In this document: positions 6,480-25,721 of the stretch, piece by piece
How the letters are laid out: every line of letters begins with the position of its first letter
How positions within the stretch are numbered: position 1 is the stretch's first letter
From: Candidatus Amesbacteria bacterium GW2011_GWB1_47_19
GTDB lineage: Bacteria; Patescibacteriota; Microgenomatia; CAZETR01; Amesbacteraceae
Length of the DNA: 64,000 bases
Assembly: GCA_001002325.1 (NCBI GenBank)
Contig: LCNZ01000005.1
Location: 18,274-82,273, forward strand
Reading direction: 5' to 3'
The notes under the pieces: generated by a model
Seen by the model: only the letters and a program-made list of their open reading frames with translations
Told to the model about the DNA's origin: nothing
Database searches by the model: none
Program-made: the position numbers and the translations under genes

Positions 6480-6520
6480 CGCCGATAATACACGATATAA
6501 AGAGAAAATTCAAAGTGCTG

Positions 6521-6925
6521 TCATTTCAATTCCGCCGGGCGGAACTTGTAGCCGTATATTAACATTCCCCGTTCATCGCCGTCCTGTCTGAGGCGGCGGG
6601 TGACCATTTCCACCGGAGTACCTATTTCCACGGGTTCTTTGCCCAAATCAGTAAGTTGGGCCGTCACTAAAGGGCCTTCCGCAAGTTTAATTAGGGCCAC
6701 CACATAGGGGGCGTTCTCCTCAAATCCGACCGGAGCATCATATACAGTGGTAAAAGAATATACTTCTCCCATACCGGAAAACCGGTACGGGGTCTCGGCT
6801 GTGTTTTTACAATAGGGACATATATCCCGGGGAGGAAAAATTTTAGTCTCACAGTGAGGGCAAATTTCACCGATCAGTTTGTACCGCTGGTTTTTCAGGC
6901 GCCAATGGCGGGGGATCTCCATCAT
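6521..6925 (-). CDS. DUF35-like Zn-ribbon plus OB-fold protein
   Basis: CxxC...CxxC zinc ribbon (CPHC, CPYC) followed by an OB-fold segment. This is the pattern of DUF35_N/DUF35 proteins that normally partner thiolase/HMG-CoA synthase. No such partner is present in the window. Confidence 0.65.
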   Translation of the reverse strand: MMEIPRHWRLKNQRYKLIGEICPHCETKIFPPRDICPYCKNTAETPYRFSGMGEVYSFTTVYDAPVGFEENAPYVVALIKLAEGPLVTAQLTDLGKEPVEIGTPVEMVTRRLRQDGDERGMLIYGYKFRPAELK

Positions 6926-7049
6926 CTGTTAGACGAAAAACCGAATATAAACCCACGGCAGGGTTGACAGATAAGACAATCAGAGTTAAGATGTGACCAC
7001 ACTCTTGTAACAGAGAGTGGAGATGACCCGCAAGGGAAATCTCACGAAA

Positions 7050-7078
7050 AGCCCGACCGCAAGGCCGGGTTTTTCAAA
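7050..7078. terminator. GC hairpin with flanking T/A runs, probable terminator downstream of tRNA-Leu(TAG)
   Basis: The sequence aagcccgaccgcaaggccgggttttt forms a stem-loop followed by a U-run. Read on the minus strand it follows the tRNA. Confidence 0.35.
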
Positions 7079-7080
7079 TG

Positions 7081-7161
7081 TGTCGGAGAGAGGAGTCGAA
7101 CCTCCATGGGTTACCCCACAGGTTCCTAAAACCTGCGCGTCTGCCATTTCGCCACTCCGAC
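7081..7161 (-). tRNA. tRNA-Leu (anticodon TAG), type II long variable arm
   Basis: Cloverleaf folded by hand. Acceptor is gtcggag/ctccgac, anticodon stem caggt/acctg with loop tttagga, and T-loop ttcgact. Confidence 0.75.
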
Positions 7162-7244
7162 GCGGATACGCTCATATCGGAAACCTCTTTCCTTTCGCTT
7201 TCGCTCAAGGTTTCTCCGATATATCTCGCTATGCTCGCTATAAA

Positions 7245-7287
7245 GCGCGCGCCTGCCTGCCGGCAGGCAGGTCTGCCAGTTCCGCCA
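7245..7287 (-). repeat. orphan tRNA-Leu 5' fragment interrupted by a 20-bp palindrome
   Basis: gcgcgc + CCTGCCTGCCGGCAGGCAGG (7252-7271) + tctgccagttccgcca. The last segment matches nt 1-23 of tRNA-Leu(CAG) at 9617-9700, not the adjacent tRNA-Leu(TAG). Confidence 0.6.
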
Positions 7288-7316
7288 TCGCCGCCCGTAA
7301 TTTGAGTATATTTTAC

Positions 7317-7358
7317 CAAAAAAAAGCCCCGGCTCCTGCCCGATGCCGAGGCTTTTTG
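7317..7358. terminator. bidirectional rho-independent terminator candidate
   Basis: An A-run, then gccccggctcctgcccgatgccgaggc hairpin, then a T-run. It lies downstream of the minus-strand methyltransferase gene. Confidence 0.4.
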
Positions 7359-7411
7359 GAAATTCCACCGTCCCGATTTTCATCGGAACCGCGGAACCTG
7401 ACGGGATTGTA

Positions 7412-8173
7412 CTATGATAGCGGATTAATGTCAACTCTATGGGATAATATAAACAGACTGGGACCAAAATAAACATGGGAAAGAAGCGGTTGGGAAAAAT
7501 ACTCCAGGATTAACAGCAGATGTCGGGGAAGAAATTTTTTAAGCTTTTGATAACGAAAATTGGATACGGAAAGGACGGTATCGACAAAAAACCCTGACCT
7601 TCGAAGTGATTTGATGACTGCCAGGGGATGATGATTGACAAAAGGTATAGACATCTTTTTGATGTTTTGGAGACTGCGTTTTTCAAGCGGAGTAAGCGGT
7701 ATCCGGGGACCGAAAAACAAACTGCGGAAACGGGATTTGAAGTTTTGGGAGTTGGCAAATTCCAGGATGAACCGACCACCGGGCGTTAGGAGGCGGTGAA
7801 TTTCGGTAAAGGTGGGTACGAGATCGGGCAAATGATGGGCAACCCGGATTAAGAGAGCCAGGTTTACCGATTGGGGATAAAGACGGATTTTCTGGGCAGA
7901 ACCGGACATAATGAAAATATTTTTATTTTTTTTGAGTTTGATGCGTGCCTGACGGCGGTGGTTCGCCGACGGGTCGACCAGAATAATCCGGGTACAGAAT
8001 TTTGTGAGCAGAGGTTCCAAACGGCCAAATCCTCCGCCAATATCGGCACAAACAGGAAAATTGCTGCCGGACAGTAAACGGTTTAAAGCTACGATTTCAG
8101 CCTGATGTTCGTAATCACGATTTTTCCAGTAATCGAGGTAGGAAAAATCCGGATCGTCGTAATGGTGAGTCAT
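7412..8173 (-). CDS. Class I SAM-dependent methyltransferase
   Basis: Motif I VCADIGGGFGR and motif post-II PGGRFIL. Confidence 0.75.
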   Translation of the reverse strand: MTHHYDDPDFSYLDYWKNRDYEHQAEIVALNRLLSGSNFPVCADIGGGFGRLEPLLTKFCTRIILVDPSANHRRQARIKLKKNKNIFIMSGSAQKIRLYPQSVNLALLIRVAHHLPDLVPTFTEIHRLLTPGGRFILEFANSQNFKSRFRSLFFGPRIPLTPLEKRSLQNIKKMSIPFVNHHPLAVIKSLRRSGFFVDTVLSVSNFRYQKLKKFLPRHLLLILEYFSQPLLSHVYFGPSLFILSHRVDINPLS

Positions 8174-8184
8174 GGGGAAAGCGG

Positions 8185-8754
8185 CTATTCCAAATCAGTC
8201 AAAAATTGGTTGATAGCTTTGGCCCAGGCACCGTCTTTTTCCAGGGAGGGAGGGGTATATTTCGCCATTATTTCCTCGGGTGTATCCAGTCCCTGGTCGA
8301 TATATTTACGTTTCAGGGTTTTGGCGACTGTTTCCATGGCTTCGGGGTAATTTCTGAAGCGGATAACCTGGTCGCCGTAGATGCCATATCCCCAGCAATT
8401 GTGTGACTCTTTGGGAATAATTTTACAGAGGTTGGACTCCTGTCGGGCGATGGCCACCAACAACCGATAATCAAGACGATATTTATCCGAAATGGCAATT
8501 ATCTGATCGGAATACGGTTCCAGAGGTGATCCATATCGGTGAAGATACCTGCGGATTGACAAAGCCCGAGCGTCTGAATAAGTAAATGCTGCGGACAAAT
8601 AGGGGGTGAATTCGGGAGATGAAATTCCCAAGACTTCCGGGGAAAAGGGTGAAGCCGGAACAATTGGCAAAGACATAAAAAGCAGCCTGACCGTGCCAAG
8701 AAACAAAAGGGGTAGCCCCAGGAAAAAAGTGCCTAGCCAAAATATACGGCGCAT
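8185..8754 (-). CDS. hypothetical secreted protein, possible peptidoglycan hydrolase-like
   Basis: N-terminal TM/signal. The QESNLC...NCWGYGI segment loosely resembles the SLT-type catalytic-Glu region. Weak call. Confidence 0.3.
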   Translation of the reverse strand: MRRIFWLGTFFLGLPLLFLGTVRLLFMSLPIVPASPFSPEVLGISSPEFTPYLSAAFTYSDARALSIRRYLHRYGSPLEPYSDQIIAISDKYRLDYRLLVAIARQESNLCKIIPKESHNCWGYGIYGDQVIRFRNYPEAMETVAKTLKRKYIDQGLDTPEEIMAKYTPPSLEKDGAWAKAINQFLTDLE

Positions 8755-8760
8755 AATTTT

Positions 8761-8806
8761 GAGCGGCTAAGGGGAATCGAACCCCTGTCACCCCGCCATG
8801 GCGGGG
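8761..8806 (-). repeat. duplicated 3' 30 nt of tRNA-Gly(GCC) followed by 16-bp perfect palindrome
   Basis: 8761-8790 is identical to 9072-9101. It is immediately followed by CCCCGCCATGGCGGGG (8791-8806). Confidence 0.75.
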
Positions 8807-8816
8807 AGTTCAGCTA

Positions 8817-9065
8817 TTAACAAGTATTACCTAGTAACCGCTTCATGGCATTTCCGCCTTTGTAAGATTTTAGCACTTTTTCTCTTTGTTTAGCTTCGAT
8901 GGGGATGGAATATTCTTCTTTATAAATTAGGATCCACTCCCCTCTCCTGCGAGTTGAAATATTTTGACCACGATTGTGTTCGGATAGACGACGGGATATA
9001 TCGTTGGTACTACCTATGTAATGCCGACCTGAGTAAGTATTTCTGAGAATGTATGTATAGAACAT
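8817..9065 (-). CDS. GIY-YIG nuclease family mini-protein
   Basis: YTYIL...GRHYIGST...RRLSEHN, the GIY-YIG core and Arg/Glu-His motif. 82 aa. Confidence 0.8.
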   Translation of the reverse strand: MFYTYILRNTYSGRHYIGSTNDISRRLSEHNRGQNISTRRRGEWILIYKEEYSIPIEAKQREKVLKSYKGGNAMKRLLGNTC

Positions 9066-9072
9066 TCTAATG

Positions 9073-9143
9073 AGCGGCTAAGGGGAATCGAACCCCTGTC
9101 ATCTCCTTGGCAAGGAGAAGTTCTACCATTGAACCATAGCCGC
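9073..9143 (-). tRNA. tRNA-Gly (anticodon GCC)
   Basis: Acceptor gcggcta/tagccgc, anticodon loop ttGCCaa, T-loop ttcgatt. Confidence 0.85.
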
Positions 9144-9147
9144 AGTG

Positions 9148-9220
9148 TGCCGAGAGCTGGAGTCGAACCAGCATCTGACGCTCTTCAGGCGCCCGCCGTA
9201 ACCACCTTGGCTATCTCGGC
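9148..9220 (-). tRNA. tRNA-Phe (anticodon GAA)
   Basis: Acceptor gccgaga/tctcggc, anticodon loop ctGAAga, T-arm gctggttcgactccagc. Confidence 0.85.
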
Positions 9221-9295
9221 GAAGGAATGAAATGACTGAGCTGAGATACAGCGTAAGTCGTATCTCGGCAAGGAACGAGCTTCAGTTGGATTTTA

Positions 9296-9478
9296 CTACA
9301 TCCGGGGAGGGCTTAAACAGTATCCAGTGCGGTCTCTCCCTTTTTTTAAAAATCTAAAATCTGTATTAAATAGTTTATCAACTTGAGCCGCGGATGGTCT
9401 AATACCTGTATTTTTTTCCACCAAATCTTGAAAATTAGATATTATTTCTTCCCGAAGTTGTTCTTGGGAGGTAGCCAT
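9296..9478 (-). CDS. hypothetical small ORF (60 aa)
   Basis: ORF only. Sits between tRNA-Phe and tRNA-Val. No similarity recognised. Confidence 0.2.
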   Translation of the reverse strand: MATSQEQLREEIISNFQDLVEKNTGIRPSAAQVDKLFNTDFRFLKKGRDRTGYCLSPPRM

Positions 9479-9523
9479 TTATTGATTGTATACCTGGGGT
9501 CAATAGTTGCTGACGCTGTCTGG

Positions 9524-9597
9524 TGGACGATGAGGGACTCGAACCCCCGACCCCCGCTGTGTAAAAGCGATGCTCTAACCAGCTGAGCTAATCGTCC
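9524..9597 (-). tRNA. tRNA-Val (anticodon TAC), CCA encoded
   Basis: Acceptor ggacgat/atcgtcc, anticodon loop ttTACac, T-arm gggggttcgagtccctc, followed by cca. Confidence 0.85.
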
Positions 9598-9616
9598 TGA
9601 GATTATATTACAGCTG

Positions 9617-9700
9617 TGGGCAAGAGAGGACTTGAACCTCCACTCCCTTGCGGGAACAGGCTCCTGAAGCCTGCGCGTCTGCCAGTTCCGCCACTTGCCC
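9617..9700 (-). tRNA. tRNA-Leu (anticodon CAG), type II
   Basis: Acceptor gggcaag/cttgccc, anticodon stem caggc/gcctg with loop ttCAGga, long variable arm, T-loop ttcaagt. Confidence 0.85.
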
Positions 9701-9945
9701 TAGAACTGATTCATGAGCTCCGCAATTATCTCACGTCCGAAACCGGATTTGAAGAATTTCTCAAGATTCCTGGCCTGTATTCTGGTATCGCACTCTTCGA
9801 CGTGAATCAATCGCAACGGCAAATGACCTCTTGTGGAGGGCGATTTACCACTTTCGTGTTGATACAGGCGTCTTTGTAAGTTGTTGGTTATCCCTTTGTA
9901 AATGAATTTATCCCCGTAACTTTGAAGGATATAAACAAAATACAT
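9700..9945 (-). CDS. GIY-YIG nuclease family mini-protein
   Basis: MYFVYILQS...KFIYKGITNNLQRRLYQHE. The stop codon overlaps nt 1 of tRNA-Leu(CAG). Confidence 0.8.
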   Translation of the reverse strand: MYFVYILQSYGDKFIYKGITNNLQRRLYQHESGKSPSTRGHLPLRLIHVEECDTRIQARNLEKFFKSGFGREIIAELMNQF

Positions 9946-9948
9946 GTT

Positions 9949-10073
9949 TGAAGCCTGCGCGCCTGCCTGCCGGCAGGCAGGTCTGCCAGTTCCGCCACTT
10001 GCCCTAGAACTGATTCATGAGCTCCGCAATTATCTCACGTCCGAAACCGGATTTGAAGAATTTCTCAAGATTC
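9949..10073 (-). repeat. direct repeat of 9665-9769 (GIY-YIG 3' end plus tRNA-Leu nt 1-36) with inserted 20-bp palindrome
   Basis: 13 + 92 nt are identical to 9665-9677 and 9678-9769. Perfect palindrome CCTGCCTGCCGGCAGGCAGG at 9962-9981 sits between them. Confidence 0.8.
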
Positions 10074-10194
10074 TTATGAGAAAAATGAATCAATCAAACT
10101 GCTTATATTGATGTACCCAAACCAAAATGTCATATGTCTTACGCGAAAAAAATATAAAATTGTCAATTCATTGGGTATAATTAAGAAAGTAGGA

Positions 10195-10278
10195 GCCGGG
10201 ATGCTGAAACTGGTAGACAGGCATGCTTGAGGGGCATGTGTCAGCAATGGCGTGGAGGTTCGAGTCCTCTTCCCGGCA
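10195..10278 (+). tRNA. tRNA-Leu (anticodon GAG), type II
   Basis: Acceptor gccggga/tcccggc, anticodon stem catgc/gcatg with loop ttGAGgg, long variable arm. Confidence 0.8.
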
Positions 10279-10282
10279 CACT

Positions 10283-10366
10283 GCCGGGGTGGCGAAATGG
10301 TAGACGCAAGGGCCTTAAGAGCCCTCGGTCCAAAAGACCATGCGAGTTCGAGTCTCGCCCCCGGCA
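10283..10366 (+). tRNA. tRNA-Leu (anticodon TAA), type II
   Basis: Acceptor gccgggg/ccccggc, anticodon stem agggc/gccct with loop ctTAAga, T-arm gcgagttcgagtctcgc. Confidence 0.85.
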
Positions 10367-10368
10367 CA

Positions 10369-10764
10369 ATGAGTTTTGAGTGTGTTAATTGTCATTACCT
10401 GGTACGGGAAGGTAAAAGATATGCCGGGACGGAAAACAGAAACCATTGCACGAAATGTTTGTGGTCATTGCATGCGGATTTAAGACCTGGTGACAGAAAA
10501 GCATTGTGCGGAGGAAAAATGAATCCCGCGGGGCTTACTTTTAAGCGGGTGAAAAAAGATAAGTACGGGAAAGAAAAGGTTGGAGAATTGATGCTAGTAC
10601 ACCAATGCGTAAAATGCCTAGAAGTATCAATAAACAGGATTGCGGCGGATGACGACCCGGTGGAAATAATGAATCTCGTAAATTCCGGTTTTTCTGTTGA
10701 AGGAATCAGTGTGCTGGATGAGGCTGACAGGTCGGAAGTACGCAGGCAGCTATTCGGGGTGTAA
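10369..10764 (+). CDS. RNHCP-domain zinc-ribbon protein
   Basis: Literal RNHCTKC signature plus additional CxxC pairs. The ATG lies 2 nt after tRNA-Leu(TAA). The ORF-track upstream extension from 10252 covers two tRNAs and is rejected. Confidence 0.6.
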   Translation: MSFECVNCHYLVREGKRYAGTENRNHCTKCLWSLHADLRPGDRKALCGGKMNPAGLTFKRVKKDKYGKEKVGELMLVHQCVKCLEVSINRIAADDDPVEIMNLVNSGFSVEGISVLDEADRSEVRRQLFGV

Positions 10765-10775
10765 AATTATAAACA

Positions 10776-10848
10776 CGGAGAGTGGCGCAGCTGGTAGCGC
10801 GCATCGTTTGGGACGATGAGGCCCCGGGTTCGAGTCCCGGCTCTCCGA
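10776..10848 (+). tRNA. tRNA-Pro (anticodon TGG)
   Basis: Acceptor cggagag/ctctccg, anticodon stem catcg/cgatg with loop ttTGGga, T-arm ccgggttcgagtcccgg. Confidence 0.85.
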
Positions 10849-10904
10849 CAAAGTTGAGGCGAAGTTTATTTTTAGCGTGAAATGGTTTAGGATATTGTCA
10901 GAGT

Positions 10905-11345
10905 ATGTGGAAAAAATCGTGGGGAGTGTTTGTAGGTGCGGGACTGGTAGCCGGTTTGTTGCCGGTGATGGTCTGGGGGGTTAGTTCCGGAACCAGGACA
11001 CTGTTCTCCACCCGGGCTCAGACACATGAACTGAGATTATGGTGGGAGCCGGCGGAAGCGACCCTGCGGATAGATCAGGCGATGAAATTTAAGCTGATGG
11101 CAAATGTTGAAAGTAAAAACGGAATTCCGGCACTGGAAATGGAATTGGATATCCCCAAGGGGATACTTGTAGCCCCGAAGATTGTCAGATACGGTAAACT
11201 TATCGGTACCTCAGTGGTCGGTGAAGTGGATGTAGTGGCGGTAAACCAGGGAGATTTTTTGATTGGTATCATAGAAGACAAAGTAGTTACCGGCTATCCT
11301 GATATCACCATAATAGCCTCTCCGGTAAAAATCAAAGTCAGGTAA
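10905..11345 (+). CDS. hypothetical secreted protein (first gene of pilin-like operon)
   Basis: N-terminal signal/TM. Ends 4 nt before the next gene. Confidence 0.45.
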   Translation: MWKKSWGVFVGAGLVAGLLPVMVWGVSSGTRTLFSTRAQTHELRLWWEPAEATLRIDQAMKFKLMANVESKNGIPALEMELDIPKGILVAPKIVRYGKLIGTSVVGEVDVVAVNQGDFLIGIIEDKVVTGYPDITIIASPVKIKVR

Positions 11346-11348
11346 AGT

Positions 11349-11795
11349 ATGAAGTTCAAGCCTGCCCTGTCCCTGATCGAATTATTGCTGGTAGTATCGC
11401 TGATCGGCATTCTGTCGCTGCCGGGAGTATTGGGAATAATTAATATCAGAGCCCGCCAGTCACTGGATGTATCTACTAACAAGTTTGCCGAGATTATGCG
11501 ACAAGCCCACATTTTTTCGAGGGAAAACAGAGAAAGTTTGAGTTGGGGAGTAAAAGGAACCGATAAGAATAGTTACCAACTGGTGACCCGGGATGCGACC
11601 AAGACAGTGACAGTCAGGGAAAAGCACAGACTGGAATCGCCGACAGTTTTTATAATTTATCCGTTTGAAGTGTGGTTTGACCAGGGAACGGGAAATACCG
11701 AAATCAACCGGATTTTCATGACCTATGCGTCCAAGGGCGGTACCCGAGTGGTGGGTTTGTCCCCGACCGGTTTAGTAGTTATCGGTATCCTATGA
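11349..11795 (+). CDS. Type IV pilin-like protein (prepilin-type N-terminal domain)
   Basis: N-terminus MKFKPA|LSLIELLLVVSLIGIL is a class III signal. Ala, not Gly, sits at position -1. Confidence 0.7.
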   Translation: MKFKPALSLIELLLVVSLIGILSLPGVLGIINIRARQSLDVSTNKFAEIMRQAHIFSRENRESLSWGVKGTDKNSYQLVTRDATKTVTVREKHRLESPTVFIIYPFEVWFDQGTGNTEINRIFMTYASKGGTRVVGLSPTGLVVIGIL

Positions 11796-12283
11796 AACCC
11801 CGGGCGTTTACAATAATTGAAGTTGTACTGGCGATAACTCTTTTAATCATTTTGGTAACCAGCGTATATCCCCTGGTGGGATGGATGAGAACCAAATCGA
11901 TACGTCTGCAATACGACAGCCAGGCAGCGCTGGTACTTCAGGAAGGGATGGAGGCGGCATACAGCGTTATGATGTCCGACTGGAGCGGCTTTCCTCCCGG
12001 ACCGGGTTATTTTTATCCGATAATTGATGCGTCTTCGGGAACACCAGTCTGGAAGCTGACTGCCGGAATACAATCTAATTATCAGGCCAGGTTTGAAAGA
12101 AAAATACTGATATCCCAGGTATGCCGGAGGCTGGTAACCGGTCAGATGGAAAATACTCCGTGCCAGGCCGATTATCCTGCCGATCCATACAGCCGGAAAG
12201 TTACAACCACCGTAAGCTGGAGGGAATCAGGAAAAACCAAGAGTATTAACGCCCAATTATTAACGGTGAGTATAAACCGATGA
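11792..12283 (+). CDS. Type IV pilin-like protein (prepilin-type N-terminal domain)
   Basis: MKPRA|FTIIEVVLAITLLIIL. ATGA overlap with the upstream gene. Confidence 0.7.
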   Translation: MKPRAFTIIEVVLAITLLIILVTSVYPLVGWMRTKSIRLQYDSQAALVLQEGMEAAYSVMMSDWSGFPPGPGYFYPIIDASSGTPVWKLTAGIQSNYQARFERKILISQVCRRLVTGQMENTPCQADYPADPYSRKVTTTVSWRESGKTKSINAQLLTVSINR

Positions 12284-12726
12284 AGAAGGGAATATCTCTA
12301 ATAGAATTGTTAATTGCCATGGCGCTGGCGGTGTTTGTATTTTTGCTGGTGATATCGATGCTGATGACAATACTAACGGCAAATGCCAGAAGCAGCCGGC
12401 AGGAGACGTTTGAGCAGACAAAAAACGATTTGCAGAGCGAGCTGACAAACGCTGTTAAATGGGGTAAGGATATCAGCTGGTCTTCAGGACAGCTGATCGT
12501 AGACGGTGTAGCGTATTCGAGGATCAGCAATGTGATAATAAAAAACGGACAGTTGTTGACGCCACCGCAAGTCAAAATCACCAACTGGACAATAACCGAG
12601 TTGGGGCAGGGAGATCCGAACATCAGTTTGCGCATGGAAATAGCTATGGAAAACGCAGCTAACAGCAGTATTAAAGACAACATGATTTTGACAGTTACAA
12701 AAAGGCAGACGATCATTGTGAAATGA
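12280..12726 (+). CDS. Type IV pilin-like protein (prepilin-type N-terminal domain)
   Basis: MKKG|ISLIELLIAMALAVFVF. ATGA overlap with the upstream gene. Confidence 0.7.
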   Translation: MKKGISLIELLIAMALAVFVFLLVISMLMTILTANARSSRQETFEQTKNDLQSELTNAVKWGKDISWSSGQLIVDGVAYSRISNVIIKNGQLLTPPQVKITNWTITELGQGDPNISLRMEIAMENAANSSIKDNMILTVTKRQTIIVK

Positions 12727-14021
12727 AAACCATGCGAAATACCAACGGTGTTGCTGTGATGATGCTGGTGCTGGTAGTGTCCATGATAGCGGCTTTTATG
12801 GCCATTGCCTGGCAGTCACGGATTTTATTGGGGGTATACAGGAATAAAGCCCTGTCGGACATTATTGCCGTTTCTTACCATGGGGAGTCCAAGGCCAATG
12901 ACATCCTGGGCAAATTCCTGGGAGATTATCCGGGGGCATTTACTTATAATTTTGAAACTCCATGGGAAGATTTGGGAGACGGAACACAATTGAAAGTCGA
13001 GGGAAAACTGATTGATAATAAGGAAACACTAAATATTACAGCCAAGCGAACGTATGCCAGCACCCAATATCAGGTTACCAGGGAGACGGAAACTTTTTCG
13101 GCGGAAGCTTCGGATGCCGAGATAGTATTTTCGCTGGACTGCACGGGATCCATGGCAGCTGCCGCTTGTGCGGATACAAATATTTGCAATTACCAGCCTC
13201 CCGGGAGTCCGTTTTACGCGATTACCAGGATGGACAAACTGAAAGAGGCCTTGATTGTTTTTCTGGACAAGCTGGAAGCGCTTCCAGGGCATGAAAAAAT
13301 AAAGATCGGACTCTCAGTGTTTACATTAAAGAGCGACTGGATGTATACCAGCTACGCTGCGGACGGAACCCCGACCGGACAGGCAATAAAACCCGATAAT
13401 GCGATATCGTCAGATATTCCGGCTATTAAAAGCGCCGTCAATAACTTTCTGGGAAGAAGCGGTGAAGAGCACAGTATGGCTTGTAAAAAAATTCTGACCT
13501 TTACGAATGTAGGAGGGGGACTGATTTTCGCCCATGACTACCTGAAGACCAGAAAACCACTGGGAAAGAAACAGATAGAAATATTGGTTACCGACGGCTG
13601 GTCTAATCAGAGAACTCCACACGCGGGATGCAGCCAAAATATTTTTTGCCCCGGGGATGCGATTTATTGCAGCGGCTATGGTTATACCTGCCCGGTTCCA
13701 TTACCGAACTGTCAGATGCATGGTTGGGAGTTTACAGCCTGTGCGCTGGCAAGTACCCAGCAACAATGGCAACCTATATCTTTTGCGTCCGATCCCTGGC
13801 CTGTCGGAGTACGTGACCCTGAGGTTGATATGTATACGGTGGGTGTATATTCTGATCCGCCTAATTATATAAATTCGGCATTCACCAATTTTTCAAATAA
13901 GTATTTTCAGAATGATGAGGCTTTTCAATTACCGGTTATATTGTCGGATATTTTTGATGAAATATTAGAAAGTTTTACAGTAATTAATGTTCAGCGACTG
14001 GTACCTTCGCCGATAAGATAA
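12723..14021 (+). CDS. von Willebrand factor type A domain protein with N-terminal TM (pilus-associated adhesin-like)
   Basis: MIDAS motif DCTGSM (DxSxS) and downstream TDG. N-terminal hydrophobic helix. ATGA overlap with the last pilin-like gene. Confidence 0.7.
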   Translation: MKTMRNTNGVAVMMLVLVVSMIAAFMAIAWQSRILLGVYRNKALSDIIAVSYHGESKANDILGKFLGDYPGAFTYNFETPWEDLGDGTQLKVEGKLIDNKETLNITAKRTYASTQYQVTRETETFSAEASDAEIVFSLDCTGSMAAAACADTNICNYQPPGSPFYAITRMDKLKEALIVFLDKLEALPGHEKIKIGLSVFTLKSDWMYTSYAADGTPTGQAIKPDNAISSDIPAIKSAVNNFLGRSGEEHSMACKKILTFTNVGGGLIFAHDYLKTRKPLGKKQIEILVTDGWSNQRTPHAGCSQNIFCPGDAIYCSGYGYTCPVPLPNCQMHGWEFTACALASTQQQWQPISFASDPWPVGVRDPEVDMYTVGVYSDPPNYINSAFTNFSNKYFQNDEAFQLPVILSDIFDEILESFTVINVQRLVPSPIR

Positions 14022-14046
14022 AATGGGTTATAATTCTTCGGGAATT

Positions 14047-14088
14047 GCGGGTGTAGCTCAATGGCAGACCTGCCTGTCGGCAGGCAGG
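14047..14088 (+). repeat. 5' 22 nt of tRNA-Gly(TCC) followed by 20-bp near-palindrome
   Basis: 14047-14068 gcgggtgtagctcaatggcaga is identical to 14341-14362. Then CCTGCCTGTCGGCAGGCAGG at 14069-14088. Confidence 0.75.
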
Positions 14089-14108
14089 GAGCCAGAACTT
14101 TGATTTTA

Positions 14109-14327
14109 ATGAAAAGGTATTTTGTATATATCACCCGCAGTAAATCAACCGGCAGATTTTATACCGGTATGACAAACGACTTGCAAAGAAGGTTAAAACA
14201 GCATAACCGACTAACATCAAATACCCTTGCTACAAGGAAATTGACCGACTTTGAAATTGTTTACAAAGAAATGCAACAAAGCAGAGCAGAAGCAAGAAAA
14301 GTAGAGAGTTTCGTGACAAAATTGTAA
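14109..14327 (+). CDS. GIY-YIG nuclease family mini-protein
   Basis: MKRYFVYITRSKSTGRFYTGMTNDLQRRLKQHN. The ORF-track start at 14061 lies inside the tRNA fragment/palindrome. The ATG at 14109 is preferred. Confidence 0.75.
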   Translation: MKRYFVYITRSKSTGRFYTGMTNDLQRRLKQHNRLTSNTLATRKLTDFEIVYKEMQQSRAEARKVESFVTKL

Positions 14328-14340
14328 AATTCGGTAGCAT

Positions 14341-14411
14341 GCGGGTGTAGCTCAATGGCAGAGCGCCAGTTTTCCAAACTGGTGACGAGGGTCCGATTCC
14401 CTTCACCCGCT
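14341..14411 (+). tRNA. tRNA-Gly (anticodon TCC)
   Basis: Acceptor gcgggtg/cacccgc, anticodon stem ccagt/actgg with loop ttTCCaa, T-loop tccgatt. Confidence 0.85.
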
Positions 14412-14561
14412 CAATAGCGAAATGGTTTTGTGTTTTCTCCAATTTTCCTCAAGAAATCGATCTTTTCCCGAGTTCTAGCCACCATTTTTAGCGTTTTATC
14501 TTTGGCCTGGAAAAAATCATACCGGTAACCGGAGTCGGACCTAATTTGTAGAAAAAATGAG

Positions 14562-15377
14562 TCAGTTTATACTGGAAACTCGCATCCAAATCGGATAATG
14601 GTCAGATAGATTTCCGTATTTTTCGTCAGTTATAACCTTGAATTCTTCTAGTTTTATCAGGTTGTTTCCGAAAGCATAATCTAATCTGAGTATAGGCTCA
14701 TTTACGGGAAGCGGAAATAATTTTGCCGGAACTGTGTCACCTTTTCCTTTACCAAGATCAACAAAACCTGCATTTGTAAGTATTTTCGTTACTTCGCCTC
14801 GTTTCATCTCGTTAAGTGATCCCTTCATACTTTTCATAGGTCCGGGGAATTTACGACCTAATGTCTCTAATTGTTTGTCGGTTTCTGCTAAATCATCATT
14901 ATCAAAGGTGTTTAAATCCCCTGTAATTATCGTTGGAGTGTTTGGGTTGACTAATTTTAATACTGCCTCGATTTGTTTAATTCTAGTATCTTCACTGACA
15001 TCGTCTAAATAGACTGAAAATATATCTATTCCACCAACCTTAGTTCTAATCGCATTTCTGGTAGCAAGCCAAATAGTTTGAATTTCCGTTTCGGCGATTT
15101 GAGAGAAAACAGTAATACCATTGTCATGTCCTTTTGTTACTAATCTTTGATCTTCTAGCTTTACTGTGTGCACGTAGGGGTATCCAAATATTTGTTTTAA
15201 CTCATCTGGTGTAAAAACTTCTGTCCATCTATGGGTATCAACTAAACTGACAATATCTGGGTTCAAATCTTTGATGACACTAGCTAAACCATCAATTCGT
15301 TCAGGTCTTTTTTCTGGGCTGCCATAATCTTTAAAACCACCACTTAAAATATTCCAAGACAAAATTTCTGTTGACAT
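14562..15377 (-). CDS. Endonuclease/exonuclease/phosphatase (EEP) family protein
   Basis: N-terminal SWNIL..GG, a D/N-rich core and C-terminal SDHYPI, all typical of the EEP fold. Start chosen at MSTEIL. Confidence 0.7.
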   Translation of the reverse strand: MSTEILSWNILSGGFKDYGSPEKRPERIDGLASVIKDLNPDIVSLVDTHRWTEVFTPDELKQIFGYPYVHTVKLEDQRLVTKGHDNGITVFSQIAETEIQTIWLATRNAIRTKVGGIDIFSVYLDDVSEDTRIKQIEAVLKLVNPNTPTIITGDLNTFDNDDLAETDKQLETLGRKFPGPMKSMKGSLNEMKRGEVTKILTNAGFVDLGKGKGDTVPAKLFPLPVNEPILRLDYAFGNNLIKLEEFKVITDEKYGNLSDHYPIWMRVSSIN

Positions 15378-15476: not shown

Positions 15477-16154
15477 TTAGCATATTTTTCGATCTTTGTG
15501 ACGTTTGCCAAATACTTCTAAAAACAGAAAAGGATTCATTTTCTCAAGATAGTCTTCGAATACGTTTAGTTGTAAAATAACATCAGCTGTTACGTAATAG
15601 CGAAGAATTATTTTTACCGCTGTTGCAAATGACATATCAGAATGTTCGAGTAGATACGCTCCCAGGAAAGGGGTATAGATTCTGCCGGGGTTAGTTTCGA
15701 TGACTGTTTTTAACTCGCTTACTTTTATCCAATGGCAACCTTTGGTCTCATTGGTTTCACTGGCAGGAGTTCCTGTCGCAGTGCATCTGAAAATGAATCC
15801 AACAAATGGACCTTCCGGCGATTGAGTTACACAAAAGGGATGGAAAATATCTGAAGACATGTCATGTGAGCTTGTGTGTAGCGTTTCATCTTCGCCACCC
15901 ACCAATGTGATCTCCAGCCCAGATTCTTCCAGCACCTCTCTTCTGACCGTCTGGTATATTGACTCACCTGCACGGAATTTACCACCAGGTATTTCAAGCG
16001 TTCCTGAAAATTTAGGGTCGGACTCCTTACTGCGAGTCTGAACGATTATTTCTTTTTCGCCTGAATCCCCGAGTCTTTCGATTATCGCCCCGACAAATGG
16101 AATTGTCAGCGCCTCTGTGCCTATGCGCGGTAATTTATCATAGGGAATGTACAT
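15477..16154 (-). CDS. NUDIX hydrolase
   Basis: Nudix box GGKFRAGESIYQTVRREVLEESGL. Confidence 0.8.
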   Translation of the reverse strand: MYIPYDKLPRIGTEALTIPFVGAIIERLGDSGEKEIIVQTRSKESDPKFSGTLEIPGGKFRAGESIYQTVRREVLEESGLEITLVGGEDETLHTSSHDMSSDIFHPFCVTQSPEGPFVGFIFRCTATGTPASETNETKGCHWIKVSELKTVIETNPGRIYTPFLGAYLLEHSDMSFATAVKIILRYYVTADVILQLNVFEDYLEKMNPFLFLEVFGKRHKDRKIC

Positions 16155-21407: not shown

Positions 21408-21698
21408 TTAGGACATCTTTAAAGTGTTTTTCAAAATTTGTTTTAGTTGATTGTGACCGTAGCCACTTTTTAGATATATTTCTCTAGCTTCGGCATCTTG
21501 ACGATTTTGAAAATATTCGTAATGAATTAATTTTAAAGGTCGGCGGGTTTTGGTGGAATCGACTTTGCCTAAATTGTGATCTTGTAGGCGACGCTTTAAA
21601 TCGTTGGTGAAGCCAATATAAAGTTTTAAATCTTTTTGAGATTGAAGGACATAGACGTAGTATTTGTTTGTAAAAACGTCGGACGTTTTTGTAGGCAT
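21408..21698 (-). CDS. GIY-YIG nuclease family mini-protein
   Basis: KYYVYVLQS...LKLYIGFTNDLKRRLQDHN. Confidence 0.8.
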   Translation of the reverse strand: MPTKTSDVFTNKYYVYVLQSQKDLKLYIGFTNDLKRRLQDHNLGKVDSTKTRRPLKLIHYEYFQNRQDAEAREIYLKSGYGHNQLKQILKNTLKMS

Positions 21699-21729
21699 AA
21701 GTTCGGATGTCCCGTCAAACGGGACTATG

Positions 21730-23421: not shown

Positions 23422-25721
23422 GGATTGTCTCCGAATACTTCTAATTGAGTGTAATTGCTTAATACTATAGCAATATCCGTGATAGTAATAAAGTTGTCGG
23501 CATCTATGTCGTATATCATATTTTCGGAAAAGACTGGAACGGCTAACTCTGTGTAGTTGCTGATCATCAGACCCAGGTCAATAATGTTGAGAATGTTGTT
23601 GTCATCAAAATCACCAGCCATCATTTCCAGTGATGCCCAAGCGGCGGGGCCGACATTGAGGCCGAAGACGAATCTTAGAGTACCCAGCCTTTTTTGCAGG
23701 TATCCGGGACCTTTGGAGTAGACATCATAGTTGGTACCGAGGGAAGAAATAGGAGACTGGGCGATGTCTATGGGAGCATCGGAGTTGAAGACTCCGTTGA
23801 TGGTACTGGTCATGGTGTGGGTATAGGTATAGCCGTCAAAAGCGTTTACCAGGGACGGGTTTACGCTACGGTTTACGAGAGATCTGGTAACCCCTTGCAT
23901 CCTGACCGAGTAGCGGAAAGTGGAAGGAGGAGGTTCGGTGGGGTAAGGAGTGTCTGTAGGATACGGAGTTTCGGTGGGGTAAGGAGTGTCTGTAGGATAC
24001 GGAGTTTCGGTGGGGTAAGGAGTCTCAGTCGGGGCCGTGACAAACGTATAGACAGGATTGGACGGAGGAATGAGAATATTACGTGTAGGACTGGCTTTGG
24101 TCATAACTTTAGTCTGAATCAGATCGTAAGTCAGGCGTACGGGGTTGGTAGGAGGTACGGTGAGCGCGTAAATATAGAACCTGACAATGGGCTGGCTGAC
24201 GTTGCTGGTATAGCCCACCGTGGAGGTATTAGTGGCAGCGAAGTCGATGGTTACCCGGCCATTTGCGCGTGAAACTGAATTGACGGGGAAAGTCCAATAG
24301 GGAGAACTATCAAACGGATCAACGGTGGTAATCTGGTAAACTGGGTTACCGAATTGGTCTGTAATATCCACTTCAACATCACCCGTGGCACTATACGGGT
24401 ATGAAAGCCGGAAACTAAGGGAGGAGATGGCCTGTCCTCCGGTATTGAGGCTGATGGTGATAGGAAACGCTTGGGTGGTTGGTTTGGTAGCGGTGAGCGG
24501 GTTTGTAGTTAGAGTGGCGGATCCAACGACACCAGTCGGAGTAGCTGAGGGAATGGGTGCGACGGTGGCGGTACCTCCAGGTAATGTCGGCACGACGGTG
24601 CCGGTACCCCCTGAGGGTTGTACTATAACGGAATACATACCCACAATGGTCGTGGGGTCATTGGGGCCGAGAGTGACAGTCTGACCAGCCGAAAAATCGC
24701 GTGAAAGCAGACTATATGTGGTAGGTTCACTATTAACCATATTCAGTCCGGTATCGGTATAAGCTGTGGTCCAGGACGGCCGGCCGGTAATACGATCATC
24801 GAACGCCAGATAGACAATTGCATGACTGGCAACGGTAAAAGTAGCCAGAGGGCTAGTGTTGTAGGAGCGGGAAACTTGAGCGGTGCGGATCCATTGCGAG
24901 CCTAAGACCAGAGAAGGAATAGTAGACCAAATATAGGTCCGATCTCCATATTGAGTGGAACCCACTTGAAGATTATTCTGGATGGACCAATTGACAGCAT
25001 TGGCTGAATCGTAAACTACCAGATTGGAAATCAGGGATCCGGGACCCGGGGTGGGTGTGTTGGTGCCCTGAATAGTAACATCAGCGGGAGAGGTAGAAAA
25101 AACGAGGTTAGTGCTAAGGTCGTTAACCAATTGGGAGTTGGGGGCATTGATGACAATTTGGGTAGGAACCGATTGGCCTTGTTGGAGTTTAAATGCCACC
25201 GGGAAACTGGCGGCTTCGATCAGGCCGGATTGGGCAGGGGGTTTGGGATCGCATTGACCCTGAATAGGATCACATAACGCCAGGGCAAAGATAACCCTGC
25301 CTGTGGAGTTGGCATTAGCCATGGTTGTTTTGGAAATAATAGCCGGGAACAAGGAAGTGGTGGTAACATCACCGGTTAACTGGATCAGGCTCTGGTTAAA
25401 GTTTAATTCGACCAGGATAAAACCAATCATGTGGGCTTTGGCATCGACCATCACTTTTACTGTTTGATTCGGAGGAAGAGTAAAAGATGAAGCGCCGGAA
25501 GAGCTGGTAACGTAAATATGCGGATCGGTGGCGGCGGCGCGGGAAGGCAGTTTGATGCCACCGGTCTTGAGGATATAAACGGCAACAGGAAGACTGAGGG
25601 CAAGAATTACCAGGGCGGCGATTTGGAGAAACAGCGGGAGCCGGACAAACTTTCCACGTAAGCGGTCAAAAAAACTTTCTTTAGGCAAAGACGGAGTCTC
25701 TTCCGACAAGTCTTTTTTCAT
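23418..25721 (-). CDS. Large surface protein with cohesin-like domain, (TPYPT[DE]) repeats and C-terminal dockerin-like double Ca-binding repeat
   Basis: C-terminus has DFDDNNILNIIDLGLMISNY followed by DIDADNFITITDIAIVLSNY, two DxDxDN-type repeats. Internal segment carries FRLSYPYSATG...VTIDFAATN. N-terminal TM. Confidence 0.55.
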   Translation of the reverse strand: MKKDLSEETPSLPKESFFDRLRGKFVRLPLFLQIAALVILALSLPVAVYILKTGGIKLPSRAAATDPHIYVTSSSGASSFTLPPNQTVKVMVDAKAHMIGFILVELNFNQSLIQLTGDVTTTSLFPAIISKTTMANANSTGRVIFALALCDPIQGQCDPKPPAQSGLIEAASFPVAFKLQQGQSVPTQIVINAPNSQLVNDLSTNLVFSTSPADVTIQGTNTPTPGPGSLISNLVVYDSANAVNWSIQNNLQVGSTQYGDRTYIWSTIPSLVLGSQWIRTAQVSRSYNTSPLATFTVASHAIVYLAFDDRITGRPSWTTAYTDTGLNMVNSEPTTYSLLSRDFSAGQTVTLGPNDPTTIVGMYSVIVQPSGGTGTVVPTLPGGTATVAPIPSATPTGVVGSATLTTNPLTATKPTTQAFPITISLNTGGQAISSLSFRLSYPYSATGDVEVDITDQFGNPVYQITTVDPFDSSPYWTFPVNSVSRANGRVTIDFAATNTSTVGYTSNVSQPIVRFYIYALTVPPTNPVRLTYDLIQTKVMTKASPTRNILIPPSNPVYTFVTAPTETPYPTETPYPTDTPYPTETPYPTDTPYPTEPPPSTFRYSVRMQGVTRSLVNRSVNPSLVNAFDGYTYTHTMTSTINGVFNSDAPIDIAQSPISSLGTNYDVYSKGPGYLQKRLGTLRFVFGLNVGPAAWASLEMMAGDFDDNNILNIIDLGLMISNYTELAVPVFSENMIYDIDADNFITITDIAIVLSNYTQLEVFGDNP
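23931..24040. repeat. three tandem 36-bp repeats encoding TPYPTETPYPTD
   Basis: ttcggtggggtaaggagtgtctgtaggatacggagt appears three times in tandem, inside CDS 23418-25721. Confidence 0.8.

Follow-up and report, generated by a model that had tools for sequence, protein, structure and literature searches.

Why does a fragment of a tRNA-Leu gene, cut in two by a perfect palindrome, lie just upstream of an intact tRNA-Leu(TAG) gene? We addressed this question in a stretch of 64,000 nucleotides (hereafter, the window) from Candidatus Amesbacteria bacterium GW2011_GWB1_47_19 (contig LCNZ01000005.1, positions 18,274 to 82,273). Elsewhere in the window, a tRNA 5′ stub, a palindrome, a gene for a single-domain GIY-YIG nuclease and an intact tRNA form a composite module, of which two complete copies were recognized. 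The fragment at 7238–7294, hereafter the orphan, possesses the stub and the palindrome without a GIY-YIG open reading frame (ORF). A first-pass annotation of the sequence had proposed that it may be a relic whose nuclease gene was lost, or else a solo hairpin or target remnant. Our results place the main weight on the palindrome itself, as a precisely inserted repeat found across phyla. For the orphan, we favor with modest confidence the reading that it is a non-functional tRNA-Leu 5′ stub and a composite selfish module without its nuclease gene, that is, an ORF-less or solo hairpin copy; its interpretation as a relic is plausible and unproven.

An exact insertion of 20 bp

The palindrome is a discrete, precisely inserted hairpin repeat and not a by-product of the tRNA stub. 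The sequence CCTGCCTGCCGGCAGGCAGG occurs in the window at the orphan (7252–7271) and, identically, at 9962–9981, as the first-pass annotation had stated; a third copy at 14069–14088 differs by one mismatch. No copy is expected by chance (expectation = 0; shuffled windows), and all three are located within tRNA 5′ stubs. Comparing the stub to the adjoining full tRNA in the tRNA-Leu(CAG) module of the window and in L298, L157 and L102 (L-numbers designate contigs or loci fetched in our searches for comparison), we observed a difference of exactly 20 bases, with nothing duplicated or lost. Several copies can accumulate at one site: a 39-nt tRNA-Arg stub in L102 contains two palindromes, at positions 12/13 and 22/23, three tandem and progressively degenerate copies occupy a single site in L287, and one palindrome is nested in another in L143 and L169, where both are split at CCG^G.

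Insertion points in tRNA stubs coincide with the stem/loop junctions of the D-arm, exactly or at most 2 bases off, apart from single cases in the T-arm (L039) and in the anticodon arm (L237). Some solo copies are centered in a larger inverted repeat (e.g., L021 and L207). We found no target-site consensus beyond weak preferences of the flanks: A precedes the palindrome (position −1) in 37% of the cases and T in 12%, and A^T and G^G/C^C flanks are over-represented. About one-sixth of the tested solo copies present short imperfect direct repeats on either side, which belong to local tandem repeats.

Other hairpins were observed in similar positions. In L289 (~1000–1700), the tRNA-Leu stubs around a GIY-YIG ORF carry a hairpin-containing insert of ~90 nt in the D-loop (between GGAATG and GCAGAC), and one stub presents the 20-bp palindrome in its place; the D-loop of these stubs appears to be a favored site for hairpin inserts of several kinds. 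Further perfect palindromes (TCCCGATAGCTATCGGGA, TCCGCCAGCTGGCGGA, GGGACAGGTCGCGACCTGTCCC and CCTTGTCCGCCGCGGCGGACAAGG) recur across unrelated contigs with the main palindrome (L098, L109, L180 and L190; L140, L141 and L159; L243; L267), which suggests that a family of such palindromic repeats exists.

Dispersal across genomes, phages and coding genes

We found the exact palindrome in at least 120 metagenome contigs, at least 120 contigs of a one-genome-per-species set and 39 viral contigs. At least eight bacterial phyla carry it among the matches listed, whose hosts include many Patescibacteria as well as Omnitrophota, Planctomycetota, Thermodesulfovibrionales, Ignavibacteria, Chloroflexi, Bacteroidota (among them cultured Winogradskyella, Flagellimonas, Longitalea and Flavivirga) and, on the proteobacterial side, Gamma- and Deltaproteobacteria and Bdellovibrionales. 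The flanks of the palindrome are unrelated and differ from site to site; copies are also located in AT-rich spacers and in other hairpins.

In contigs of low GC content, we found the palindrome within long ORFs, nearly always translated as LPAGRQ. Based on their conserved motifs, we take these ORFs to be atpA, secA, pheS, ligA, uvrC, purH, a P-type ATPase and a class II aminoacyl-tRNA synthetase. For atpA, the filled allele reads KK-DLPAGRQG-NI and the empty one KKE-NV: exactly 7 residues are absent from the closest relatives, whose identity over the aligned part is 94–98%. The DNA of the filled allele contains the 20-mer and one extra A in the adjoining A-run. The secA gene likewise presents 7 additional amino acids at the same place relative to 11 relatives; in both genes, one compensating base keeps the palindrome in frame (xLPAGRQx). 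In a metagenome-assembled genome (MAG) of Thermodesulfobacteriota (L188, 3861–4160), we also observed the palindrome (PACRQAG) together with a GIY-YIG domain, in frame within an HsdS-like ORF between ...LAVMGRLVP and ASELLKEIEAEK...; from its motifs, this ORF looks like a type I restriction specificity subunit (HsdS).

Our literature search did not find the palindrome sequence itself in the papers searched, nor any paper that connects palindromes with tRNA stubs and GIY-YIG genes in Patescibacteria. If our interpretation is correct, the orphan marks a larger phenomenon, in which one invariant 20-base hairpin is common to Patescibacteria, Bacteroidota, Planctomycetota, Proteobacteria and phages and is inserted with base-pair precision, even in atpA and secA.

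Association with GIY-YIG nucleases

The palindrome is statistically tied to minimal GIY-YIG nucleases. All ORFs within 1.5 kb of ~300 palindromes were compared all-against-all, and GIY-YIG proteins formed the largest cluster. The next-largest cluster, in viral contigs, is ParB-like by appearance. No other neighbor family was enriched in this clustering, which included no dedicated Y1/HUH profile search. Across the fetched loci, 12 of 20 GIY-YIG ORFs are found at most 500 bp from a palindrome, relative to 5.4 expected (P about 4e-4), and 8 of the 20 at most 100 bp away.

A profile derived from the GIY-YIG ORFs of the window identified four of them there (8817–9065, 9700–9945, 14109–14327 and 21408–21698) and gave no match at the orphan site. 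The four tested ORFs encode 72–96 amino acids and consist of bare PF01541 domains (E = 1e-12 to 1e-16), with no further domain in NCBIfam. The palindrome is located 16–20 nt upstream of the ORFs starting at 9945 and 14109, and other hairpins adjoin the remaining two, downstream of tRNA-Gly(GCC) and tRNA-His. In the tRNA-Leu(CAG) module, the upstream part (9949–10073) is composed of a 69-nt copy of the ORF 3′ end (10005–10073), nucleotides 1–23 of the tRNA (9982–10004), the palindrome and nucleotides 24–36 of the tRNA (9949–9961). At the other end of this module, the stop codon of the ORF overlaps the first base of the intact tRNA-Leu(CAG) (9616–9700, minus strand).

Searching with the 9700–9945 protein yielded 59 matches, including itself, and the homologues are 48–70% identical. 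One source lists the protein as an endonuclease of Candidatus Amesbacteria. The gene calls of at least 14 of the 26 homologues inspected extend upstream through the palindrome (MVDLPAGRQAR, WQTCLPAGRRA or PACRQAG) and several run downstream into a tRNA-Leu 5′ end; the layout of stub, palindrome, ORF and tRNA-Leu is therefore conserved at 48–70% identity. The three loci that we read closely (L287, L289 and L298) all present a stub with a perfect or degenerate palindrome, and copies of the palindrome flank the GIY-YIG ORF on both sides in L287. One practical implication is that the palindrome misleads gene callers, both through GIY-YIG calls stretched across it and through the 7-residue insert in annotated housekeeping proteins.

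The two other GIY-YIG ORFs of the window present variations of this layout. One belongs to a mirror-image module (9143–8760, minus strand) in which tRNA-Gly(GCC) (9143–9072) is followed by an ORF of 82 amino acids (9065–8817), a distinct 16-bp palindrome CCCCGCCATGGCGGGG (8791–8806) and 31 nt that repeat the tRNA 3′ end exactly (8760–8790). The corresponding tRNA-Gly(GCC) of the relative L003 is present without the ORF, the palindrome and the 31-nt repeat, and would be an empty site. The other (21801–21408, minus strand) consists of tRNA-His(GTG), the hairpin GTCCCGTTTGACGGGAC (21709–21725) and an ORF of 96 amino acids (21698–21408), and the sequence after its stop codon is loosely similar to the tRNA-His 3′ end. 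The encoded protein is 62% identical to that of an L003 ORF with GGGACGCTCAGCGTCCC-type palindromes upstream, which hints at a hairpin specific to this clade of proteins. A search for strict co-variation of protein and hairpin found no one-to-one pairing between protein clades and hairpins, because the proteins beside the palindrome are only 34–62% identical.

Comparison with known systems

The window modules resemble those of the Ssn family, whose members are single-domain GIY-YIG proteins of ~94 amino acids that bind hairpin repeats (NTS/dRS3, "SRM") in single-stranded DNA (ssDNA) and cut beside them (Chenal et al. 2025, PMC11893778). The ssn genes are usually flanked by repeats, of which hundreds of further solo copies exist, and the authors compared the NTS-ssnA-NTS arrangement to an insertion sequence and to REP/RAYT; the NTS of Neisseria is reportedly seldom intragenic (2%), and the main text of that study mentions neither tRNA nor Patescibacteria (PMC11893778). 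Like Ssn, the window proteins are single-domain GIY-YIG proteins of the ~80–95 amino acid class, their genes are flanked by a hairpin-forming inverted repeat of 20–50 nt, and the repeat is dispersed mostly away from the gene, the orphan copy being one example. In contrast to the Ssn repeats, the hairpin of the window forms a perfect palindrome of 20 bp, it is not specific to a lineage but invariant across phyla, it lies within tRNA 5′ stubs and, elsewhere, in frame in essential genes, and its copy number is low here (3 in 64 kb). By this analogy, we rate the window modules as an Ssn-like nuclease with its hairpin repeat, an already-known kind in a new form. If true, the partnership of Ssn nuclease and hairpin would come to include a new class of hairpin, the candidate phyla radiation and, as sites of insertion, tRNA genes, and would provide a defined pair of enzyme and sequence for ssDNA tools.

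In the PDB, the best matches of the 9700–9945 protein are the UPF0213 proteins EF2693 (1YWL, E = 1.6e-4) and BH0048 (1ZG2, E = 4.4e-4). These stand-alone, Slx1-like proteins share the minimal GIY-YIG domain without extensions (PMC1564403), whereas no association with tRNA stubs or palindromes is described for them. Rickettsia palindromic elements (RPE) are another case of palindromic selfish DNA, which housekeeping proteins accommodate as an inserted in-frame peptide (PMC10969869). RPE, however, measure ~100–150 bp and carry a conserved peptide module, whereas the palindrome is a cross-phylum sequence of 20 bp that needs one extra base to keep the frame. It shares with RPE and with miniature inverted-repeat transposable elements the many dispersed copies, including in-frame ones inside genes; the target-site duplication that also characterizes such elements was absent from the comparison of stubs and tRNAs. 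REP/RAYT and the IS200-IS605 Y1 systems rely on short GC-rich hairpins that are recognized as ssDNA and integrate without target duplication, with dispersed solo copies and repeats flanking the enzyme gene. They differ from the present case by an imperfect hairpin with a guide tetranucleotide instead of a single perfect palindrome, and GIY-YIG is the enriched enzyme here.

A broader proposal, which we consider possible yet doubtful, is the following: the palindrome would be a minimal mobile DNA unit that single-domain GIY-YIG ssDNA nucleases copy or paste, precisely and with no target duplication, into hairpin loops or stem/loop junctions. Assembled with a tRNA stub, a GIY-YIG gene and a tRNA, the unit would be autonomous, a captured tRNA promoter driving its expression, and the orphan would be non-autonomous. 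The targets would comprise arms of tRNA genes, terminators and the center of another copy, and horizontal transfer would have spread the unit through at least eight bacterial phyla and phages, including essential genes in which a compensating base maintains the frame (LPAGRQ). We infer this mechanism of spread. If true, it would offer a concrete and testable candidate for the multiplication of such repeats.

Alternatively, the GIY-YIG genes might be free-standing homing endonucleases that cut tRNA genes, with the palindrome as a protective insert disrupting the target and the orphan as the remnant of a protected target. We regard this scenario as quite improbable. It is consistent with the location of the GIY-YIG genes within tRNA clusters and of the palindrome in the D-arm, 13–25 nt upstream of the ORF junction, a spacing that recalls the distance between cleavage and insertion sites of I-TevI. 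A polymorphism of the homing type may also exist: the element following tRNA-Gly(GCC) (ORF, palindrome and 31-nt repeat) is absent from L003. Positions 1–964 of L003 are 100% identical to 10035–9072 of the window, across the tRNA-Leu(CAG) module and the Val, Phe and Gly tRNAs; past tRNA-Gly(GCC), the sequences are too divergent to be aligned and are then ~82% identical further downstream. Because of this drop, L003 could be chimeric, and the pattern reflects either a chimeric assembly or an entire tRNA block that recently passed from one diverged strain to another. The phage T4 gene segB provides a precedent as a GIY-YIG gene located among tRNA genes and present or absent between relatives, but SegB is a multi-domain, sequence-tolerant double-stranded DNA endonuclease without duplication of a tRNA stub or palindrome (PMC2330249). 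The architecture of SegB and I-TevI (DNA-binding domain, ~200 amino acids or more) was not found in the window ORFs, which encode the catalytic domain alone, and the group I intron endonuclease model TIGR01453 matches only their first 40 residues with 23–26 bits (cut-off of 56). Moreover, the intact tRNA beside each element keeps an uninterrupted D-arm that would stay cleavable, and hundreds of palindrome sites bear no relation to tRNA.

Structure of the orphan

On the minus strand, positions 7238–7294 form a tRNA-Leu-like 5′ stub cut in two by the palindrome: GCGGCGA-TG-GCGGAACTGGCAGA, the palindrome, and CGCGCGC (Table 1). We read the stub as part of a type-II (Leu-like) tRNA, with its acceptor 5′ strand and D-arm before the palindrome and the 3′ strand of the D-stem after it; CGCGCGC would also include the start of the anticodon arm, and the subsequent TTTATAG resembles the anticodon region TTTTAG(G) of tRNA-Leu(TAG). 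The first-pass annotation had assigned the fragment to the 5′ part of tRNA-Leu(CAG) and not of tRNA-Leu(TAG). This assignment holds for the D-arm, and the orphan is identical over 41 nt (7247–7287 and 9957–9997; 16 nt of D-arm, the palindrome and 5 nt) to the palindrome-bearing stub of the tRNA-Leu(CAG) module. It does not hold for the acceptor strand, which is unlike all four tRNA-Leu genes of the window and matches no other tRNA of the window, nor for the bases following the palindrome, which resemble the anticodon-arm region of tRNA-Leu(TAG) and tRNA-Leu(CAG) equally. Unrelated sequence borders the 41-nt tract at both ends, and the likeness of the flanks to the complete loci ends there, a pattern that may reflect a short tract of gene conversion or a recent common origin.

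The intact tRNA-Leu(TAG) lies 90 nt downstream and is followed by a terminator-like hairpin (7052–7069; terminator scan). The 90 nt in between contain no ORF, and the surrounding genes are housekeeping genes. As the first-pass annotation had noticed, no GIY-YIG ORF is found near the orphan: the closest one (8817–9065) is ~1.5 kb away. The remnants of a decayed ORF that the annotation suggested seeking by alignment to the complete GIY-YIG loci were not recovered, as neither blastn-short against the four GIY-YIG loci nor an unfiltered six-frame hmmsearch detected a GIY-YIG remnant in the 90-nt spacer (7162–7251). This spacer has no blastn match in any of the fetched loci. Its possible relation to the ~90-nt D-loop insert of L289 was unconvincing (score of 13, equalled or beaten by 11 of 500 shuffles).

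We also considered whether the stub is a cryptic or intron-bearing tRNA. ARAGORN, run with and without the palindrome, gave tRNA-Leu(TAG) as its sole prediction; a "tRNA-Tyr with a 99-nt intron", called at a low threshold on the opposite strand, vanished once the palindrome was removed, and we treated it as an artefact. An Rfam scan of 6500–15000 (E up to 1) returned only tRNAs and chance matches, with no family for the stub or the hairpin. The attachment-site remnant of an integrase island is unsupported, as the duplicated part is the 5′ end of a tRNA and not its 3′ end. At least seven independent assemblies (including two NCBI MAGs and JGI, ENA and Logan contigs) agree at the orphan locus with 100% identity, which is thus not an assembly artefact. 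A sequencing adaptor or mate-pair junction was likewise rejected, given that flanks are contiguous and in frame, with identical contexts in independent JGI, ENA, NCBI and Logan assemblies.

The -10-like motif upstream of the stub (7310–7318) is a putative tRNA-type promoter that would now drive the stub, the spacer and tRNA-Leu(TAG). It is a pattern match only and was unflagged by a two-hexamer promoter scan. The same geometry (TATAAT ~15 nt 5′ of the stub) is observed in the tRNA-Gly module (14021–14031) and in L298. The stub may be what supplies the promoter. This location between a promoter-like motif and a tRNA raises another possibility, namely that the stub and hairpin serve the tRNA-Leu(TAG) precursor as a functional 5′ leader, or a dimeric regulator as its operator, and are kept by selection on tRNA expression or processing instead of being selfish DNA. 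The palindrome indeed remained perfect while the rest of the stub diverged, and the locus is invariant across the assemblies. Yet, the same 20-mer is found in frame in atpA, secA, ligA, uvrC, pheS and purH, in AT-rich spacers and in phages across phyla, so that a role specific to this locus leaves the dispersal unexplained. In addition, the sequence is invariant and shows no compensatory changes, the fold of 7150–7330 is not unusually stable (z = -1.4) and no Rfam family matches. We consider this the least credible of the explanations examined.

Origin of the orphan

Other genomes provide examples of palindrome-bearing stubs with and without an ORF. In L298, a related Microgenomates, a -10-like TATAAT precedes a tRNA-Leu stub with the palindrome (placed after the GG of the D-loop), a GIY-YIG ORF whose protein is 62% identical to that of 9700–9945, tRNA-Leu(TAG), the trigger factor gene (tig) and DUF5660. 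This gene order is common to L298 and the surroundings of the orphan, which include two extra genes in between. The corresponding intergenic position of L003 is occupied by a different GIY-YIG ORF, with three other palindromes upstream, and L003 has a different tRNA-Leu(TAG). ORF-less palindrome stubs are also found directly upstream of a full tRNA in L079, L087, L140 and L157, and that of L079 retains ~10 nt resembling the 3′ end of an ORF. In L079, L087 and the window, the acceptor stem of the stub differs from that of the adjoining tRNA and the D- and anticodon arms agree. These comparisons favor the orphan as the ORF-less state of the module, without proving the earlier presence of an ORF, and they leave its foreign acceptor stem unexplained. 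The comparison of the locus, which the first-pass annotation had recommended, yielded an ORF-bearing relative and a relative with another ORF, but no variation of the orphan itself.

We propose the following scenario for the orphan. By analogy with the Ssn family, the small GIY-YIG proteins would recognize the hairpin of the palindrome in ssDNA and nick beside it. The palindrome is copied as exactly 20 bp without target duplication, and many copies have gone into stem/loop junctions of DNA hairpins. Most copies, the orphan included, would be solo repeats requiring no nuclease gene in cis, and the orphan may once have carried an ORF. The relic proposed by the first-pass annotation gains plausibility from a layout equal to the complete modules minus the ORF, from the full module in L298, from the ORF at the same position in L003 and from the recurrence of orphans elsewhere; it is weakened by the lack of an ORF remnant and by a flank likeness limited to 41 nt. 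The other proposal, a solo hairpin, is at least as good, because there is no ORF remnant and because the palindrome is found at hundreds of unrelated sites, more than 90% of them without GIY-YIG. The annotation did not foresee this wide dispersal as a discrete insertion. It had held that occurrence of the same fragment at many unrelated sites would count against a relic: the palindrome occurs at hundreds of such sites, and the tRNA stub does not.

Several observations weigh against the scenario that we favor. The spacer contains no trace of a GIY-YIG ORF, no presence/absence polymorphism exists at the orphan site among the seven assemblies, and a simple history of duplication followed by deletion of the ORF is insufficient because the acceptor of the stub fits neither neighboring tRNA. 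More than 90% of the ~300 fetched palindrome copies have no GIY-YIG ORF inside 500 bp, so the link between palindrome and nuclease could be indirect. The GIY-YIG proteins adjacent to the palindrome are just 34–62% identical to each other, and they are as close to paralogues located beside other hairpins as they are to one another. Regarding the likeness to Ssn, the SRM pattern HGTCWYN(0-2)YYVSBRHN(0-5)WNVSBRGN(0-2)RNCYNB misses all three palindrome sites on both strands, while the NTS control was found. The proteins may belong to the Ssn subfamily cd10448 (GIY-YIG_unchar_3) or to UPF0213, and the best PDB matches, which are UPF0213 proteins, are compatible with either placement.

An alternative, which we judge unlikely, is that the locus never contained a nuclease gene. 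A tRNA-Leu pseudogene or stub would have been hit independently by the mobile palindrome, or would have received it by conversion from the 9957–9997 stub; the stub itself could originate, for example, from an incoming tRNA-Leu(TAG) displacing the resident gene. The solo state of most palindrome copies, the spacer devoid of ORF remnant and the 41-nt tract of identity between unrelated flanks all agree with this alternative, as does the acceptor foreign to the adjoining tRNA, which the orphans of L079 and L087 also present. Furthermore, the tRNA-Leu(TAG) at the corresponding position differs strongly among the window, L003 and L298, which suggests repeated replacement. Against it, all three palindromes in the 64 kb lie within tRNA 5′ stubs, two of them beside GIY-YIG ORFs; the ORF-bearing modules produce precisely such a duplicated 5′ stub, immediately before a tRNA of the same family; and the relative L298 shows the ORF-bearing state before tRNA-Leu(TAG).

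Features of the window and additional observations

Table 1. Positions of the orphan, its surroundings and the two complete modules in the window
Feature	Positions	Strand	Remarks
Extended -10-like motif TGGTAAAAT	7310–7318	-	Read from sequence; 15–18 nt 5′ of stub start
Stub, first part: acceptor GCGGCGA (7288–7294), TG, D-stem/D-loop GCGGAACTGGCAGA	7272–7294	-	D-arm identical to tRNA-Leu(CAG) and to stub 9982–9997
Perfect 20-bp palindrome CCTGCCTGCCGGCAGGCAGG	7252–7271	.	D-loop/D-stem junction of stub (3′ end of D-loop)
Stub, second part: CGCGCGC then TTTATAG	7238–7251	-	Local alignment
Spacer with imperfect inverted repeat ATATCGGAGAAACCT ... AGGTTTCCGATAT	7174–7223	-	No coding remnant
Intact tRNA-Leu(TAG)	7080–7161	-	ARAGORN; Rfam tRNA, 54 bits
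Complete module 1, upstream part	9949–10073	-	93-nt exact direct repeat 9677–9769 / 9981–10073
Complete module 1, nuclease gene: single-domain GIY-YIG ORF of 81 amino acids	9700–9945	-	PF01541, E = 7e-14
Complete module 2, upstream part: tRNA-Gly(TCC) nt 1–22, palindrome variant 14069–14088, GAGCCAG	14047–14095	+	Direct-repeat comparison
Complete module 2: GIY-YIG ORF of 72 amino acids (14109–14327), then intact tRNA-Gly(TCC) (14341–14412)	14109–14412	+	

The 93-nt direct repeat of the first complete module presents a promoter-like sequence (TTCAAA-17-GATAAT with an upstream TG; 9725–9753 and 10029–10057, minus strand). This sequence lies inside the DNA coding for the conserved C-terminal motif FKSGFGREII, at the 3′ end of the ORF, so that each copy of the repeat contains it. 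The downstream tRNA could be expressed from it, as could the ORF from the upstream copy.

Near the orphan, a strong promoter-like sequence (TTGACA-17-TACAAT; 7434–7406, minus strand) overlaps the end of a methyltransferase gene, and a terminator-like hairpin with a T-run (7363–7325, minus strand) is located ~40 nt downstream. The stretch 7325–7434 is 82% conserved in L003 and has no significant Rfam match; it is a candidate small RNA or leader.

Two further observations concern other parts of the window. At 15657/15658, L001 and L002 (JGI Ga0209518_1000178 and NCBI DNMO01000005.1) contain 144 extra bases inside a NUDIX gene, for which the window has the in-frame shorter allele with a longer fused ORF (15477–16154). 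Finally, a tandem array with a period of 18 nt (36-nt double units, GGAGGTTCGGTGGGGTAAGGAGTGTCTGTAGGATAC) extends over 23929–24036.

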